A stretch of 64,000 nt of DNA from Escherichia phage vB_EcoM-Ro111lw. The stretch lies in sequence record MH571750.1, one strand, 5' to 3'. The notes under the pieces were generated by a model. The model saw nothing but the letters and a program-made list of their open reading frames with translations, made no database searches and was not told the origin of the DNA. The translations under genes were made by a program, and so were the position numbers. This document shows, one piece after another, positions 5,860 through 40,480 of the stretch (positions are counted from its first letter, which is position 1; each line of letters opens with the position of its first letter).

Positions 5860-6324
5860 TTACTTTGGATATACACTGTCAAGATAAATGTCAGCTTCCA
5901 TTCTACGTCTGTTTTTCAGGCCGTTTGAAGTGACCTTCTTACCTTTGACTGTAACCTTGTTCCACCACTGCATAGCTTCTGCACAACCGACCTTATTACC
6001 AGCATTGTGGCGCTTGATAAATGTAGAATCCTGCATAGCTGTGATACCGATGTTGTATGTTTCACTTACAAGTGCATCGAACTCGTTCTGAGAAGTTGGA
6101 ACCTTGATAGCTTTATTCACTGCTGCAACGAACTTCTCAACATCTGCAAGAAGATACTGTTCAGCTTGTTCAGCAGTAATTTTCATACCCATCTTAACAG
6201 GTTTTCCGTCAATACGGATTGTCCCATACCCGATTGTTGGGATTCCGGCAGAGTCTTCGTAAGCCTCTAACTTCAGACCTTCAAAGAACTTAATAGCCTC
6301 TAAACCTTTTCTTGAGAGTTGCAT
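5860..6324 (-). CDS. Endolysin, T4/lambda-type lysozyme (glycoside hydrolase family 24)
   Basis: Translation begins MQLSRKGLEAIKFFEGLKLEAYEDSAGIPTIGYGT..., matching the conserved N-terminal catalytic region of GH24 phage lysozymes (Glu in EGL..AY, Asp, IGYG). Confidence 0.8.
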   Translation of the reverse strand: MQLSRKGLEAIKFFEGLKLEAYEDSAGIPTIGYGTIRIDGKPVKMGMKITAEQAEQYLLADVEKFVAAVNKAIKVPTSQNEFDALVSETYNIGITAMQDSTFIKRHNAGNKVGCAEAMQWWNKVTVKGKKVTSNGLKNRRRMEADIYLDSVYPK

Positions 6325-14377: not shown

Positions 14378-14620
14378 ATGCAAACATTAACAGTAGTTGA
14401 ACATGAAAACTGTGAGAGTATTGAGTTTGTCAGGGTCATTGGTGTTGAACACCACATTTTCTTAAAAGTGGGATACTTATGTGACCCCGCTAGAGTAGAA
14501 AGATTTATACGTGATTGTTTTGGTGGTAGACATCTGAAGAGTGTTATTTTTGAGACAGTTTTACCAGAAGGTTTAGAAACGAATAATAACATTTACCTCC
14601 TTACGAGGATTAGACAATGA
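14378..14620 (+). CDS. Hypothetical protein (80 aa) embedded in the tRNA array
   Basis: ORF track; AAGGTG Shine-Dalgarno 8 nt upstream of ATG; stop overlaps the next start (ATGA). Confidence 0.5.
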   Translation: MQTLTVVEHENCESIEFVRVIGVEHHIFLKVGYLCDPARVERFIRDCFGGRHLKSVIFETVLPEGLETNNNIYLLTRIRQ

Positions 14621-15174
14621 GATACTTAAAGTATGCTTCATGGATTTTCTTAGCTTTGTTAGAGCCATTTGCAGCAATCTTAGCAGTTATCTTAGCACCT
14701 TTTGTAGTTCCATTCTACAGTGAGAAGAAAGGACACTTACCTTTCGGGTTCAGATGGATGGAGACATATGACAACCCAATTGATGGTGATGAAGGTCACG
14801 TTAAAAGATGGGCTAATATTAGATGGATTGGTAAACTAGGCGTCTACATGCAAAGAGTTGGATGGCTCTGGAGAAACAAAGCTTATAACTTCTCTTACCA
14901 TGTATTAGGAAGAGATGTAAAAGATGTTACTAAGTGGAAAGGTAATATCAACGTAAGTTCTAACCCTGAAGATAATCAGACTGGTTATCTCCTAATGTGG
15001 AACAGTAATGCTTGGGGATTATTCGCTTTTATCCCATCAATTAAAGTCTTCGGTAAACAGTTTTACTGGAGAATTTATGTTGGATGGAAACTTAAAAGTG
15101 TTGTCCCAGAAGAAAGAGCATTCTCAAGGGAAAGAGTTATGTTGGCATTCTTTATTCATCCACTGAGAAAGTAA
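14617..15174 (+). CDS. Hypothetical protein (185 aa) with N-terminal transmembrane helix, embedded in the tRNA array
   Basis: ORF track; N-terminal WIFLALLEPFAAILAVILAPFVV hydrophobic segment; Trp-rich. Confidence 0.5.
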   Translation: MRYLKYASWIFLALLEPFAAILAVILAPFVVPFYSEKKGHLPFGFRWMETYDNPIDGDEGHVKRWANIRWIGKLGVYMQRVGWLWRNKAYNFSYHVLGRDVKDVTKWKGNINVSSNPEDNQTGYLLMWNSNAWGLFAFIPSIKVFGKQFYWRIYVGWKLKSVVPEERAFSRERVMLAFFIHPLRK

Positions 15175-15182
15175 AGATTTAA

Positions 15183-15258
15183 AGGGGATTAGTTTACAAG
15201 GTTAAAACCTCGGTCTTTGAAATCGAAGAAGTTGGTTCAATTCCAACATCCCCCGCCA
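15183..15258 (+). tRNA. tRNA-Gln (anticodon UUG)
   Basis: Acceptor AGGGGAT/ATCCCCC (1-72 mismatch), D-stem GTTT/AAAC, anticodon stem TCGGT/ATCGA loop CTTTGAA, T-arm GTTGG-TTCAATT-CCAAC, CCA. Confidence 0.75.
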
Positions 15259-15260
15259 AT

Positions 15261-15339
15261 GCTCCATTACTCCAATTGGCAGAGAGGCCAGACTTAAAAT
15301 CTGTGTTATGTATCGGTTCGAATCCGATATGGAGTACCA
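15261..15339 (+). tRNA. tRNA with Leu anticodon UAA and short variable loop; tRNA-Leu(UAA), atypical class I-like
   Basis: Acceptor GCTCCAT/ATGGAGT, anticodon stem CAGA/TCTG loop CTTAAAA, T-arm ATCGG-TTCGAAT-CCGAT, A73, CCA; 79 nt. Confidence 0.55.
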
Positions 15340-15344
15340 AATTT

Positions 15345-15420
15345 AGCGGTATAGCATAACTGGCAATGCAGCAGTCTCTGAAGCTGTCCTATTAAGGTTC
15401 AAATCCTTATGCCGCTGCCA
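15345..15420 (+). tRNA. tRNA-Gln (anticodon CUG)
   Basis: Acceptor AGCGGTA/TGCCGCT, anticodon stem GCAGT/GCTGT loop CTCTGAA, T-loop TTCAAAT, CCA. Confidence 0.7.
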
Positions 15421-15450
15421 CTTCTAAGGATTCTTACGAGAGTCCTTAAA
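15421..15450 (+). promoter_or_regulatory. Hairpin carrying the conserved 10-mer TTCTTACGAG (copy 2)
   Basis: cttctaaggattcttacgagagtccttaaa; same 10-mer as at 11560. Confidence 0.35.
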
Positions 15451-15451
15451 T

Positions 15452-15527
15452 GTGGCCTTATCATAAATGGTAATGACCCATGCTGTGAACATGGTCTATA
15501 CGGGTTCAAATCCCGTAGGTCACCCCA
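15452..15527 (+). tRNA. tRNA-His (anticodon GUG)
   Basis: Acceptor GTGGCCT/AGGTCAC, anticodon stem CCATG/CATGG loop CTGTGAA, T-arm ACGGG-TTCAAAT-CCCGT, C73, CCA. Confidence 0.8.
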
Positions 15528-15532
15528 ATTTA

Positions 15533-15609
15533 TAGTCCAAGTAGCTTATATGGTTAAAGCGCGTGTCTGAAAAACATGAGAAGAGGGTTCAAATCCCACT
15601 GGACTACCA
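15533..15609 (+). tRNA. tRNA-Phe (anticodon GAA); 3' end ambiguous (CCA directly follows the acceptor stem)
   Basis: Acceptor TAGTCCA/TGGACTA, anticodon stem CGTGT/ACATG loop CTGAAAA, T-loop TTCAAAT. Confidence 0.7.
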
Positions 15610-15625
15610 ATTTCAAAGGTGCTTA

Positions 15626-16360
15626 ATGAAAGAGATGACAGAACAAGGTAAGGAGATTTTCAATCTCTTAAAAACCGGTAAAGGGTTTTCTAACCCCCTT
15701 ATTACTGGTGCAGCAGTTCTCGGTGGAACCGTAGCTGCCTCTACATCACTTGTAAGCTCTATTAGCTCTGTATCAGACCCTACAGTAAAGGATAAGCTTG
15801 TTGCTGCTGGACTTACAACAGTTCTGCTTAACAGCTTTACCACGAGTCTGACAAGCACTACATCAACTACCAAAACACTAACAGATTACGGTCAAAAGTC
15901 CATTGATGAGTTTTCATCACGTATGCAGGTAGCAAAAGGTTACTCTAATGTTATGGGTGCAGCAGGTGAACAAGTTGGCTGTACACCATTTAGTGGTATT
16001 ATGGGTGTTGCTACAGAGTATGGTCAAAAAGCTATTGATACGATTAACAGTGCACTAGATAGTGTTAATGGTGTGTTAAGTGACTTACAAGATGCTATTG
16101 ACAAAGGTCTTGATACTATTTCTGATTTAGCTGAGCAAGCTGTTAGTAAGATTAATGAAGGTATTTCAAAAATTACAGCTTATGCAGATGAAGTTGTGCA
16201 GATGATTGAAGAAGAAGCTGCTCTTATTGCAGAGTACCTTAAAACGAATATCAATGGGTTCTTAGCAGGTATCTTACCAGACTGGTTTGATGATGCTTGT
16301 AAAACTGGTGTAATTGACACTATTGCAACACCAGAAATGAAGAACGCATTACAGAAATAA
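15626..16360 (+). CDS. Hypothetical Ser/Thr-rich protein (244 aa) embedded in the tRNA array; start trimmed from ORF-track 15563
   Basis: ORF-track start at 15563 lies inside tRNA-Phe; internal ATG at 15626 is preceded by AAAGGTG. Confidence 0.5.
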   Translation: MKEMTEQGKEIFNLLKTGKGFSNPLITGAAVLGGTVAASTSLVSSISSVSDPTVKDKLVAAGLTTVLLNSFTTSLTSTTSTTKTLTDYGQKSIDEFSSRMQVAKGYSNVMGAAGEQVGCTPFSGIMGVATEYGQKAIDTINSALDSVNGVLSDLQDAIDKGLDTISDLAEQAVSKINEGISKITAYADEVVQMIEEEAALIAEYLKTNINGFLAGILPDWFDDACKTGVIDTIATPEMKNALQK

Positions 16361-16362
16361 AT

Positions 16363-16455
16363 GGAAGATTAACCCTAAAAGGTAAGGGAGCAGTTTGCTA
16401 AACTGCCAGTAGCTGAGAAATCGGTGTACCAGTTCAAGTCTGGTATCTTCCTCCA
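16363..16455 (+). tRNA. tRNA-Ser (anticodon GCU), long variable arm
   Basis: Perfect acceptor GGAAGAT/ATCTTCC, anticodon stem GCAGT/ACTGC loop TTGCTAA, long variable arm, T-arm ACCAG-TTCAAGT-CTGGT, CCA. Confidence 0.8.
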
Positions 16456-16459
16456 ATTT

Positions 16460-16535
16460 GAATCCGTGACAGAAATGGCTATGTGCCTGTCTGCAAAACA
16501 GGTTTATAAGGGTTCGAGTCCCTTCGGATTCTCCA
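16460..16535 (+). tRNA. tRNA-Cys (anticodon GCA)
   Basis: Perfect acceptor GAATCCG/CGGATTC, anticodon stem CCTGT/ACAGG loop CTGCAAA, T-arm AAGGG-TTCGAGT-CCCTT, CCA. Confidence 0.8.
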
Positions 16536-16572
16536 AGTTATTTTACTCTCTCTCAATTAAAATAATAATAAT

Positions 16573-16632
16573 GCCCTGCTATAAGTATTCTTCATTTCGC
16601 TACCGAAGAGTATTTTTAGACAGGGCTTTTTT
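16573..16632 (+). terminator. Rho-independent terminator ending the tRNA operon (GCCCTG ... CAGGGC + TTTTTT)
   Basis: gccctgctataagtattcttcatttcgctaccgaagagtatttttagacagggctttttt read directly. Confidence 0.65.
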
Positions 16633-16697
16633 ACAGAGTTATACTTTATAGGAAGACTTATATAGTATGTCTCTGACGTACATTGTGGTTTCTCCTT

Positions 16698-16722
16698 GAC
16701 GGTCTCTGTGCCGTCTTTTTTA
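16698..16722 (+). terminator. Second terminator hairpin (GACGG/CCGTC + T-run)
   Basis: gacggtctctgtgccgtctttttt. Confidence 0.55.
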
Positions 16723-16757
16723 AGGGGAAACATGGTTAACTATTTGGAGAAAACATA

Positions 16758-16958
16758 ATGAGCGAGACCGTTTATAAAGAACTTTATGAAGCTAATAAGA
16801 AGCTAGAATTTATGCAGAATACTATCATGGCAATTGCAGACAGATTATCTGTAGCAACAGGTATTGATATTAAAGAAGCATCTATGGATGCACTTCTTGA
16901 TGCTGTTGATGCAAAGTTCGAAGTTAAGAAAGAAGAGACTGCTACAGACTCTGAATAA
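16758..16958 (+). CDS. Hypothetical small protein (66 aa) immediately upstream of terminase
   Basis: ORF track; 6-nt gap to the terminase gene. Confidence 0.45.
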   Translation: MSETVYKELYEANKKLEFMQNTIMAIADRLSVATGIDIKEASMDALLDAVDAKFEVKKEETATDSE

Positions 16959-16964
16959 TTCTAT

Positions 16965-18581
16965 TTGCGGAGGCGCTTAATGGACTTAAATGCTGTTAAG
17001 CAGAAGCGAGTGGAAGATGTTAGGAAAGTCCTAGCTGGAGAGTTGGGGCTTTCTGATGAAGTAAAAGAAATTATCAAATCATTCGGTAAAGACCCCTCTA
17101 AATTCCTTCCAACTCAAATTCTGACTTTATTAAGATACACACCAGACCAAGTTAGACTTATCTTCAAATTGATGACTGATAAGAATTATGTAGCCCCTCA
17201 GCCGGGTTCTCAAGAGGTCTTTTTAAATACTAATGCTGACTTGGTTCTCTATGGTGGTGCTGCTGGTGCTGGTAAGACTGCTGCATTGTTAATGGACTCT
17301 TTAAGATTTATCGAAGACCCTAACTATAACGCTGTATATTTCCGTCGAAATACAACACAGCTACAAGGTGGTTTATGGCCTGCTGCAAAGAAACTATTTG
17401 GTAAGTTTGGTGGGATTCCTCACGAGCAGAAAATGACTATCACATTCCCTTCTGGGGCAACTATCAAGTTTACCTACCTAGAACTTGAAAAGCACGCTGA
17501 AGGTCATCAGGGTATTGAGTATTCAGCTATTTACTTTGACGAAGGTACTCACTTCTCTGCTTCACAGATTTCATACCTACAGACTCGTCTACGTTCTGGG
17601 GCTGAAGGTGATTCATACATGAAGATTTCTATGAACCCAGACAGAGACCACTTTATTTACGATTGGGTAGAACCATTCTTAGATGAAGAAGGTTACCCAG
17701 ACCCTGAAAAGTGTGGTCGTATTCGTTGGTATGTAATGAATGATGGTGTTATGGTTTCTGATTGGGAGAGAGACAAGATTCTTGAAATGTTTCCTCTTGA
17801 GATTCCTCAAACATATACATTCATCTCTGGTACGATTGATGATAACCCAATTCTTGACTTCTTAGAACCTAAATATCGTGGTAAGTTGGAAAACAACACC
17901 CCTGTAAACGTTGCAAGACTTCGTTTCGGTAACTGGAAGGCTCGTGCAGAAGGTTCAAACTATTGGCAAAGACAATGGTGTGAAATTGTTGATTCACTCC
18001 CAGAAGATGTATTCGATGTCAGAGCATGGGACTTAGCAGCAACTTTACCATCTGAGATTAACCCTAACCCAGACTGGACAGCAGGTGTTAAGATGGGTAA
18101 ATCTAAAAAAGACGGTTGCTATTATATCATTGATGTAGTAAGATTTAGAGATAGACCCTCTGGAGTCGAAACACAAATTAATTTGACTGCTGAAAGTGAC
18201 GGTAAGCGAACTGGTATTTTTATCCCTCAAGACCCAGGCGCTGCTGGTAAATCCTACGCAACATCCCTCATCAGGAAACTTGCCGAGAAAGGTTATCGAG
18301 CAAGAGCTAAACCAACAAATAAAGACAAAGTTACCCGATTTGCGGGGTTTTCTGCTGCTTCTGAAGCTGGACTTGTAAAAGTCTTGAGAGGTAGTTGGAA
18401 CGAAGCTTACTTTCAAGAACTTGAAGGCTTTTGTGGTGATGGTAAAACTAAAGATGACCAAGTGGATGCTACCAGTGATGCTTTCAACAGTCTTAACGAA
18501 GTTAAATTATTCAAGCCACCATCAATGGGTGCTCACACAGACTTAGTGAGAGGAAACCCATATGAGGGGCTTAGACGTTGA
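16965..18581 (+). CDS. Terminase large subunit
   Basis: Walker A ATPase motif LYGGAAGAGKTAA near the N-terminus; Walker B-like AIYFDEG; size 538 aa; position at the head of the structural module. Confidence 0.9.
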   Translation: MRRRLMDLNAVKQKRVEDVRKVLAGELGLSDEVKEIIKSFGKDPSKFLPTQILTLLRYTPDQVRLIFKLMTDKNYVAPQPGSQEVFLNTNADLVLYGGAAGAGKTAALLMDSLRFIEDPNYNAVYFRRNTTQLQGGLWPAAKKLFGKFGGIPHEQKMTITFPSGATIKFTYLELEKHAEGHQGIEYSAIYFDEGTHFSASQISYLQTRLRSGAEGDSYMKISMNPDRDHFIYDWVEPFLDEEGYPDPEKCGRIRWYVMNDGVMVSDWERDKILEMFPLEIPQTYTFISGTIDDNPILDFLEPKYRGKLENNTPVNVARLRFGNWKARAEGSNYWQRQWCEIVDSLPEDVFDVRAWDLAATLPSEINPNPDWTAGVKMGKSKKDGCYYIIDVVRFRDRPSGVETQINLTAESDGKRTGIFIPQDPGAAGKSYATSLIRKLAEKGYRARAKPTNKDKVTRFAGFSAASEAGLVKVLRGSWNEAYFQELEGFCGDGKTKDDQVDATSDAFNSLNEVKLFKPPSMGAHTDLVRGNPYEGLRR

Positions 18582-39914: not shown

Positions 39915-40112
39915 ATGCCTACAATCCTAGCAATTCTTCTAAAAAATCTAGGTAGCTTCTTCTGGAAACTCATTTTATCCCTTCTAAGTGAATACATGAT
40001 TGAGAAAGTGTTCTTTAAGCTTGCAAGATACCTTGCGAGTAAGACAGACACACCTATTGATGATGAGTTCGTAGATAACTTAGAAAAAGCTTTTAAGGGG
40101 GAGAATAAATGA
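39915..40112 (+). CDS. Hypothetical small protein (65 aa)
   Basis: ORF track. Confidence 0.4.
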   Translation: MPTILAILLKNLGSFFWKLILSLLSEYMIEKVFFKLARYLASKTDTPIDDEFVDNLEKAFKGENK

Positions 40113-40480
40113 AGTGGCTAGAGGATGCTTTTAAAAATAATATTGGTGCAATTGTAGTTGGTATTTTTAGTGTTATTGGGATGTATACCACGATGCAGGT
40201 TTCAAGTGGTAAACAAGAAGTGTCTGTCACAACAAAGTTACAACAGCTAGATAATTATTCCAAAAGTAACTATTCAGCTATTCGTGATTTACAGTCTGAC
40301 ATGAGACTGATTCAGCTAGGGATGGAGAACCAGAAAGTCCAGTTAGAGAATGTTAAGGGTGAAAACGCAAAACTTACCAAAACCCTTGATAAATTCTCTG
40401 ACAGTGTGAACAATCTGGCTCAATCAGTATCAGCCTTGCAAGCTATTACTGAAAAGAACACAAAGAATACTGAAAAATAA
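40109..40480 (+). CDS. Hypothetical protein with N-terminal TM helix and coiled-coil (123 aa)
   Basis: N-terminal IGAIVVGIFSVIGMYTTMQV; remainder helical/Gln-Leu rich. Confidence 0.45.
   Translation: MKWLEDAFKNNIGAIVVGIFSVIGMYTTMQVSSGKQEVSVTTKLQQLDNYSKSNYSAIRDLQSDMRLIQLGMENQKVQLENVKGENAKLTKTLDKFSDSVNNLAQSVSALQAITEKNTKNTEK

Follow-up and report, generated by a model that had tools for sequence, protein, structure and literature searches.

Why should a phage keep two short protein-coding genes in the middle of a transfer RNA (tRNA) array, and does the second of them deserve the name 'holin' that several sequence records give it? We addressed this in a 64,000-nucleotide (nt) stretch of Escherichia phage vB_EcoM-Ro111lw (MH571750.1; hereafter the window), in which open reading frames (ORFs) of 80 and 185 amino acids lie between tRNA-Arg(ACG) and tRNA-Gln (Table 1). 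By nucleotide identity in this region (94–98% to Felixounaviruses, for example, SP3_SHan, EcoM2, Felix O1 and wV8), the window is from a Felix O1-like myovirus of the genus Felixounavirus. Felix O1 is well known from Salmonella typing and biocontrol, and from its 2010 genome paper onwards no holin has been established for it; GenBank holds two conflicting 'holin' labels, one on the longer gene (gp48, family DUF7338) and one on genes of the gp79/agp028 type. The sequences and the family are already in databases; new here are a comparative test of the label and a shortlist for the missing holin, which comprises three small candidates: gp48 and the agp027/agp028 pair. Our tentative preference is for DUF7338 as a type II membrane protein that is dispensable, is associated with lysis modules and may be holin-like or holin-modulating. 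The family is associated with lysis cassettes in distant phages, yet it is dispensable in the Ounavirinae and coexists with the holin T in phage JS10. The name 'holin' should therefore not be propagated as a settled annotation.

The initial annotation had described two ORFs that overlap by ATGA between these two tRNAs, and all of this is exact in the window: both begin with ATG on the plus strand, and the stop codon TGA of the first ORF shares bases with the start codon of the second (ACAATGAGAT). The overlap is also kept in Citrobacter phage HP1, and its conservation makes translational coupling of the 80-amino-acid ORF with DUF7338 plausible. The ratio of non-synonymous to synonymous substitution rates (dN/dS) is 0.06–0.12 for the longer ORF; for the shorter it is 0.22–0.30 between its two allele groups and 0.05 between the Mooglevirus forms (HP1 versus Sf17). 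Each ORF also matches a PHROG family, the shorter phrog_14202 and the longer phrog_2143 (E = 6.6e-80). Purifying selection and family membership together indicate that both are real genes rather than chance ORFs.

The longer protein had been thought to have no recognisable motif, which proved wrong. It matches the Pfam family DUF7338 (PF24027) over its full length, with residues 1–184 aligned to profile positions 1–176 of 180 (206.3 bits against a cut-off of 27, E = 3.8e-61), and it has all 13 residues that are invariant in a 29-sequence alignment (A1) of the family: W9, P28, T50, D52, G57, W83, W85, R86, N87, Y90, G109, G123 and W157. Its orthologues Felix O1 gp48 (ORF48, Felix01p097), SUSP1 agp134 and Mushroom gp87 are equal in length and 95–96% identical in amino acid sequence (96% each for agp134 and gp87), with no substantive difference in this gene; the window adds the 80-amino-acid ORF upstream. 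The family comprises 880 representatives at 50% identity, nearly all of which are standalone proteins of 160–200 amino acids, and it is essentially viral. It occurs in 599 phage records, and the WxWRNxxY-type pattern alone retrieved 249 confirmed viral contig matches, whereas the genomes of 185,579 species yielded only 6 matches, one of which is evidently a T4-like phage contig. The hosts identified so far are all diderm bacteria. A literature search returned no paper mentioning DUF7338.

The N-terminal transmembrane helix and the Trp-rich body noted in the initial annotation both hold. The AlphaFold2 (AF2) model of the protein (mean predicted local distance difference test score (pLDDT) 94.3, predicted template-modelling score 0.84) has a helix at residues 2–33 followed by an alpha+beta domain of approximately 150 amino acids; a single transmembrane domain (TMD) is predicted in 162 of 179 family members, and 11 of the 185 residues, counted from the translation, are Trp. 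Across the family, the N-terminal flank of the TMD (about 8 residues) has a net charge of about +2 and the C-terminal flank is neutral, so that by the positive-inside rule the predicted orientation is N-terminus in, C-terminus out (N-in/C-out). The profile and structure searches that had been suggested had different outcomes: profiles identified DUF7338, phrog_2143 and phrog_14202, whereas the modelled domain has no fold match in the Protein Data Bank (PDB), and a PDB sequence-profile search with DUF7338 returned nothing under E = 0.4. Scans of both proteins with NCBIfam and PADLOC were uninformative (for PADLOC, 0 families at E ≤ 1, with models that describe defence rather than anti-defence systems).

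Among close relatives, the two genes come and go separately. Both are carried by the window, wV8 and HP1; Felix O1, EcoM2, Mushroom and SUSP1 have DUF7338 only, and Sf17 has the 80-amino-acid ORF only. In the complete 90,092-bp genome of Shigella phage Sf17 (Mooglevirus), a clean deletion that extends to tRNA-Gln has removed DUF7338 and left the shorter ORF in place. DUF7338 is also missing from Erwinia phage phiEa21-4 (Kolesnikvirus), whose genome was not searched for the 80-amino-acid ORF. Neither tblastn nor a six-frame profile search found DUF7338 in either of these two complete genomes, which argues against it as the sole holin. This independent variation supports the 'accessory' part of the interpretation given in the initial annotation; the specific roles proposed with it (anti-defence, superinfection exclusion or a tRNA-related function) are unsupported.

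The tRNA-related role would tie the genes to tRNA modification, to processing or to protection from host anticodon nucleases, or else to anti-defence, and it draws on their tight packing (17 nt from the 3′ end of tRNA-Arg to the first ORF, and 8 nt from the DUF7338 stop codon to tRNA-Gln) and on the occurrence of DUF7338 within about 1.1 kb of tRNAs in Ounavirinae, several T4-like genera, an Av-05-like phage and the Otagovirus Pseudomonas phage phiPsa397. We consider it very improbable. In an ARAGORN survey of 86 DUF7338 loci, with homologues clustered into 14 groups at 60% identity, 13 of the 14 groups had no tRNA within about 1 kb of the gene. Proximity to tRNAs (about 1.1 kb or less) is confined to one enterobacterial-phage clade of at least 55% identity, which comprises Felixounaviruses, an Av-05-like phage and Slopek-, Dhaka- and Karam-like relatives of T4, and to phiPsa397, which was seen separately. 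We rejected a tRNA function after this survey. Moreover, Pfam and NCBIfam show no nucleic-acid-related domain in DUF7338, which is a membrane protein whose large domain is predicted to be periplasmic; phiEa21-4 and Sf17 lack the gene and have tRNA arrays that appear intact; and the 80-amino-acid protein has no informative match. The lack of a PADLOC match also speaks against anti-defence, although those models cover defence systems only.

Nor do the gene and its neighbouring tRNAs move as a unit. In Felix O1 and SUSP1 the gene sits between tRNA-Arg and tRNA-Gln, and in Mushroom tRNA-Leu replaces tRNA-Arg; flanking tRNA identities vary by lineage, and the DNA in common with unrelated carriers amounts to DUF7338 and scattered tRNAs in a different order. 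A fixed tRNA-plus-gene cassette was rejected on the grounds that the flanking tRNAs and their order differ between lineages. We infer that tRNA arrays are hot spots of exchange in which location says little about function, and at this locus the array is a poor guide.

The setting is different in distant phages. We analysed the neighbours of DUF7338 in 13 groups outside the enterobacterial-phage clade. Genes for tail-fibre, fibre-assembly and baseplate proteins are over-represented upstream of it, and genes for endolysins and Rz-like spanins downstream. In locus L085, DUF7338 is followed by a 180-amino-acid TMD protein, an endolysin with an N-terminus resembling a signal or signal-arrest-release (SAR) sequence, an inner-membrane spanin (i-spanin) and an outer-membrane spanin (o-spanin) with a lipobox. 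The order in L092 is DUF7338, a TMD/coiled-coil protein, a soluble endolysin, a 71-amino-acid ORF with two TMDs and an i-spanin with an embedded o-spanin; L065 and L066 combine DUF7338 with SAR-type endolysins and separate spanins; and in L090 a 60-amino-acid two-TMD ORF precedes DUF7338, a TMD/coiled-coil protein and an endolysin. Besides spanins and endolysin, the membrane proteins of the L085 and L065 cassettes are DUF7338 and one TMD/coiled-coil protein. Three different endolysin families occur in these cassettes, which argues for independent associations, and by our own rough arithmetic 4 of 13 groups with an endolysin no more than three genes away would arise by chance with a probability of about 0.003.

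Small proteins with an N-terminal TMD and a charged coiled coil stand beside DUF7338 in three of these cassettes (L065:6583-6849, L066:3422-3718 and L092:4048-4416). They are weakly related to each other and distinct from the i- and o-spanins, and they may be holin or antiholin partners of DUF7338. No homology was detected between the TMD/coiled-coil proteins of the distant cassettes and Felix-type agp028. Separately, a 1161-nt metagenomic contig encodes a 172-amino-acid chimaera (P0037), in which the N-terminal half of DUF7338 is joined to the C-terminal domain of a Gp53-like tail fibre (PF21882). Recombination or faulty assembly could have produced it, and it again sets DUF7338 beside tail-fibre genes.

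If DUF7338 belongs with lysis, is it the holin of Felix O1-like phages, a class III protein of N-in/C-out topology that builds up in the inner membrane and then triggers release of a soluble endolysin? Several records name it so, and the label goes back to gp87 in the Texas A&M annotation of Mushroom, where it was called from topology; the Mushroom paper describes a class III holin in a T4-like lysis system. The Felix O1 genome paper identified no holin (PMC3185647), and later work, including a genome-wide knockdown study of 2025, still left this function without a gene. DUF7338 resembles the T4 holin T in outline: 185 against 217–218 amino acids, one N-terminal TMD and, by prediction, an N-in/C-out orientation that would make its large globular domain periplasmic, with DUF7338 directly after tail-fibre genes in distant phages, as t is in JS10, and in the first-gene slot of distant lysis cassettes. 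In the dCas13d knockdown of SUSP1 genes (2025), agp134 was classed as 'Semi-Fit' (1.24, Kolmogorov–Smirnov (KS) p = 0.087, 3 guides), the class also given to T4 t, whereas agp028 was 'Not Fit'; of the annotated lysis genes of SUSP1, rIIA (agp081, Semi-Fit) alone scored. In the same study, the T5 holin was Fit and both endolysins were missed.

We nonetheless regard DUF7338 as an improbable candidate for the sole holin. Apart from its absence from Sf17 and phiEa21-4, it coexists in the T4-like phage JS10 with a bona fide t (Phage_holin_T, PF11031, 1.4e-66). DUF7338 has no Phage_holin_T hit at E ≤ 1, the hhalign probability against JS10 T is 0.5%, and its domain fold does not match the solved T domain. 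The L090 and L092 cassettes hold the extra two-TMD, holin-like ORFs described above, and the agp027/agp028 pair is conserved in the five Ounavirinae genomes tested, with agp027 strongly Fit. The annotation tables of the knockdown paper place no T4 or T5 gene under phrog_2143, and our literature search found no experimental work on a DUF7338 protein as a holin. A link between DUF7338 and endolysin e in JS10 was considered and not counted as a lysis-cassette link: the two lie in the same tRNA-to-e interval, but 7.7 kb and about 18 genes apart.

A different role, at the envelope, stays in contention. Expressed early and anchored in the inner membrane, DUF7338 could act in superinfection exclusion, or it could mask or modify a component of the envelope, with a periplasmic domain that would bind a conserved envelope target. 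T4 Imm and Sp, T5 Llp and Cor of phi80, N15 and T1-like phages would be comparable in role; DUF7338 shares with them accessory status, a predicted place in the envelope and, in distant phages, a location directly after the tail-fibre genes. A polar motif this strongly conserved, in a predicted periplasmic, membrane-proximal domain, points to a ligand or target that is itself conserved. The gene is dispensable and patchy, and tail-fibre or fibre-assembly genes stand immediately upstream of it in phiM9 and many distant phages; Cor- and Llp-type genes are located at such sites. The sigma-70-type promoter context suggests early expression with the tRNAs, and all identified hosts are diderm. We think this role unlikely. 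Searches of Pfam, PHROGs and NCBIfam gave no homology between DUF7338 and known exclusion proteins. Its TMD is a plain one and it has no lipobox, unlike Llp and Cor, which are lipoproteins or outer-membrane proteins. Rapid evolution and restriction to particular lineages are usual for exclusion proteins, but DUF7338 is far more conserved across host groups, from phages of Enterobacteria to those of Sinorhizobium and Negativicutes, whose receptors differ. The repeated setting between tail-fibre genes and endolysin or spanin genes fits a lysis role at least equally well.

Several observations also weigh against a role in lysis and keep our preference for it tentative. Lysis-cassette synteny was found in 4, possibly 5, of the 13 distant groups only, and the junction between tail-fibre and lysis genes is a known site of moron or exclusion genes too. 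In the window, the endolysin gene is about 8 kb away on the opposite strand, and DUF7338 is outside any lysis cassette. The 13 invariant residues, polar and aromatic, look more like a binding or catalytic site than is typical of a holin, and a sigma-70 promoter with tRNA co-transcription would suggest early expression, which is atypical of holins. The agp134 phenotype is weak, and its guides lie 6 nt from the 3′ end of tRNA-Arg; agp137, an ORF overlapping two tRNAs, was Semi-Fit as well, so a tRNA-processing artefact is a possible cause. The T4 exclusion gene imm was Fit in the same knockdown system. A Semi-Fit class for agp134 is therefore compatible with exclusion too, and the fitness effect does not separate the two roles.

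By analogy only, the lysis-associated protein that we favour resembles RI, the T4 antiholin, and other holin regulators in being accessory, located away from the endolysin and coexisting with a primary holin. RI has a membrane-tethered periplasmic domain and is non-essential. It differs in that no homology between the two was detected, DUF7338 is about twice the size of RI, and no lysis-inhibition phenotype is known for Felix O1-like phages. DUF7338 is predicted to be bitopic in the inner membrane, with a short, positively charged cytoplasmic N-terminus, one helix and a Trp-rich periplasmic alpha+beta domain of about 150 residues that has its conserved polar motifs near the membrane surface. 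We propose that it acts there in the lysis pathway and affects the timing or efficiency of lysis, and that Felix O1-like phages do not depend on it as their sole holin. Its place in the tRNA array is probably due to the ready exchange of genes in this region, not to any action on tRNA; tRNA genes would serve as homology islands common to unrelated co-infecting phages, and the array also houses homing-endonuclease genes. Sigma-70-type promoters probably drive the gene together with the tRNAs, and tRNA processing would then release its mRNA from the common precursor.

A bolder version of this proposal, which we consider doubtful, would see in the 880 representative clusters of DUF7338 a new and widespread family of holins, or of proteins that partner them, among phages whose hosts are diderm bacteria, with the class III topology of T and an unrelated periplasmic domain of novel fold. 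Its TxDN/WxWRNxxY site would sense a periplasmic or membrane-surface signal that sets lysis timing, the gene would have moved into the tRNA arrays of Felix O1-like and several T4-like phages with its mRNA released by tRNA processing, and in Felix O1 it would be one component of holin function.

The 80-amino-acid gene has a history of its own. It occurs in 69 phage records, nearly all of Felixounavirus or Mooglevirus type, and its product forms only 7 clusters among 5.8 billion proteins, with no match in Pfam, NCBIfam or PADLOC. In Felix O1 and EcoM2 it is missing as a clean indel that extends from its ribosome-binding site to the DUF7338 ATG, and phages without it have another leader, AAAGAGGCTATTTA, directly before that ATG. 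Two allele groups are approximately 73% identical, and the Mooglevirus form is roughly 40% identical. In the same phage pairs, synonymous divergence (dS) is 0.66–0.83 in this gene and 0.10–0.28 in the adjacent DUF7338 gene, a difference that points to a separately exchanged mosaic module. On these comparisons, the gene is an Ounavirinae-restricted, variably present mosaic insert, which would have arrived with its own ribosome-binding site just upstream of DUF7338, to which it is probably translationally coupled. The AF2 model of the protein is too poor to support a fold search (pLDDT 63, below 50 in the C-terminal third), and the underlying alignment is shallow (7 sequences).

Table 1. Features of the two-gene locus and related elements in the window (positions in the 64,000-nt stretch).
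Feature	Position	Strand	Basis
Endolysin gene	5860..6324	-	tblastn with Mushroom endolysin, 98% identity; ORF
Promoter-like sigma-70 site, near-consensus TTGACA-N17-TATAGT, 11/12	12278..12306	+	Consensus scan
tRNA-Arg(ACG), upstream boundary	14285..14360	+	ARAGORN; Rfam tRNA, 59.5 bits
17-nt leader with Shine-Dalgarno-like AAAGGTGA ahead of 80-amino-acid ORF	14361..14377	+	Direct sequence reading
80-amino-acid soluble protein gene, phrog_14202	14378..14620	+	ORF; phrog_14202, 1e-37
185-amino-acid DUF7338 membrane protein gene	14617..15174	+	PF24027 and phrog_2143
Predicted single N-terminal transmembrane helix, about residues 7-33, with invariant W9 and P28 and a conserved acidic residue at 16	14635..14715	+	AF2; alignment A1; topology statistics
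Motif T-Y-D-N-P-I-D-G-D (invariant T50, D52, G57), just after the membrane helix	14764..14790	+	Alignment A1
Family signature W-L-W-R-N-K-A-Y (invariant W83, W85, R86, N87, Y90)	14863..14886	+	Alignment A1
tRNA-Gln(TTG), downstream boundary	15183..15258	+	ARAGORN; Rfam
Terminator-like GC hairpin and T-run after the last tRNA (tRNA-Cys)	16698..16725	+	Consensus scan
65-amino-acid agp027 homologue, hydrophobic N-terminus, charged C-terminus	39915..40112	+	ORF; 91-94% identity to agp027
123-amino-acid homologue of agp028/Sf17 gp55/Felix O1 gp79, TMD and long coiled coil	40109..40480	+	ORF; 93% identity to agp028

The other candidates for the missing holin are encoded at the end of the tail-fibre operon, where genes for proteins of 65 and 123 amino acids again overlap by ATGA. 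The longer is the type that carries the competing 'putative holin' label in other records (Sf17 gp55, SUSP1 agp028 and Felix O1 gp79), and phiEa21-4 is among the genomes that keep the pair. In the SUSP1 knockdown agp027 was 'Fit' (2.27, p = 0.0007), and the 65-amino-acid, agp027-type protein may be the real holin of this phage group. We also considered an anticorrelation between DUF7338 and canonical small holins across the Ounavirinae, which phiEa21-4 fits, having a two-TMD candidate of its own; Sf17 lacks both, so no rule could be drawn.

The surrounding array holds 26 tRNAs (10867..16535, ARAGORN), and the large terminase gene starts 3′ of it at 16965 (aligned match 16980..18578). An Rfam scan of 10500..17000 returned tRNAs only, with no match on either ORF. 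The promoter-like site is a candidate promoter of the downstream tRNA/ORF unit and has the same sequence as the Felix O1 promoter 'P45' (Whichard et al. 2010, PMC3185647), and the hairpin after tRNA-Cys is the probable end of that unit; a literature search found no Felixounavirus transcriptome. Between tRNA-Gly and tRNA-Thr the window has a gene for an HNH endonuclease (13538..13951; phrog_2255, 4.7e-41), which is also present in Felix O1 and EcoM2 and absent from HP1, Sf17 and Mushroom, a patchy distribution consistent with a mobile homing endonuclease landing in the array. The next protein gene in the array, between tRNA-Phe and tRNA-Ser, encodes a DUF7217 protein (phrog_2114; 15563/15626..16360). 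Its start is more likely the ATG at 15626, used in other records, than the GTG at 15563, which overlaps tRNA-Phe. The Felix O1 orthologue, Gp49, was found in virions by mass spectrometry (PMC3185647), so the genes of the array are not all accessory.

Two gaps between tRNAs contain conserved elements that are not tRNAs. The 96-nt element at 14030..14125, between tRNA-Thr and tRNA-Val, folds with −29.3 kcal/mol (z = −3.8; 0 of 200 shuffles as stable) and is 84% identical to L035:5655-5739, directly after tRNA-Gly in an unrelated Av-05-like phage. The core is invariant between the two, and the closing stem has a compensatory change from G-C to U-A (GAGGUC/GACCUC versus GAUGUC/GACAUC). ARAGORN made no call on this element and Rfam gave no match at E ≤ 0.01; the element may be a small stable RNA that is processed along with the tRNAs. 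The second element, a predicted hairpin at 12031..12108 between tRNA-Lys and tRNA-Met (−21.0 kcal/mol, z = −4.3), is 79% identical to L035:4723-4823, directly upstream of tRNA-Cys, with the same predicted shape. ARAGORN called no transfer-messenger RNA (tmRNA) in the window; a sub-threshold Rfam match to permuted tmRNA at 12204..12388 (29.2 bits, gathering score 47) overlaps both the promoter-like site and tRNA-Ile, and the mention of a 'Felix O1 tmRNA' in the announcement of Mushroom may derive from it.

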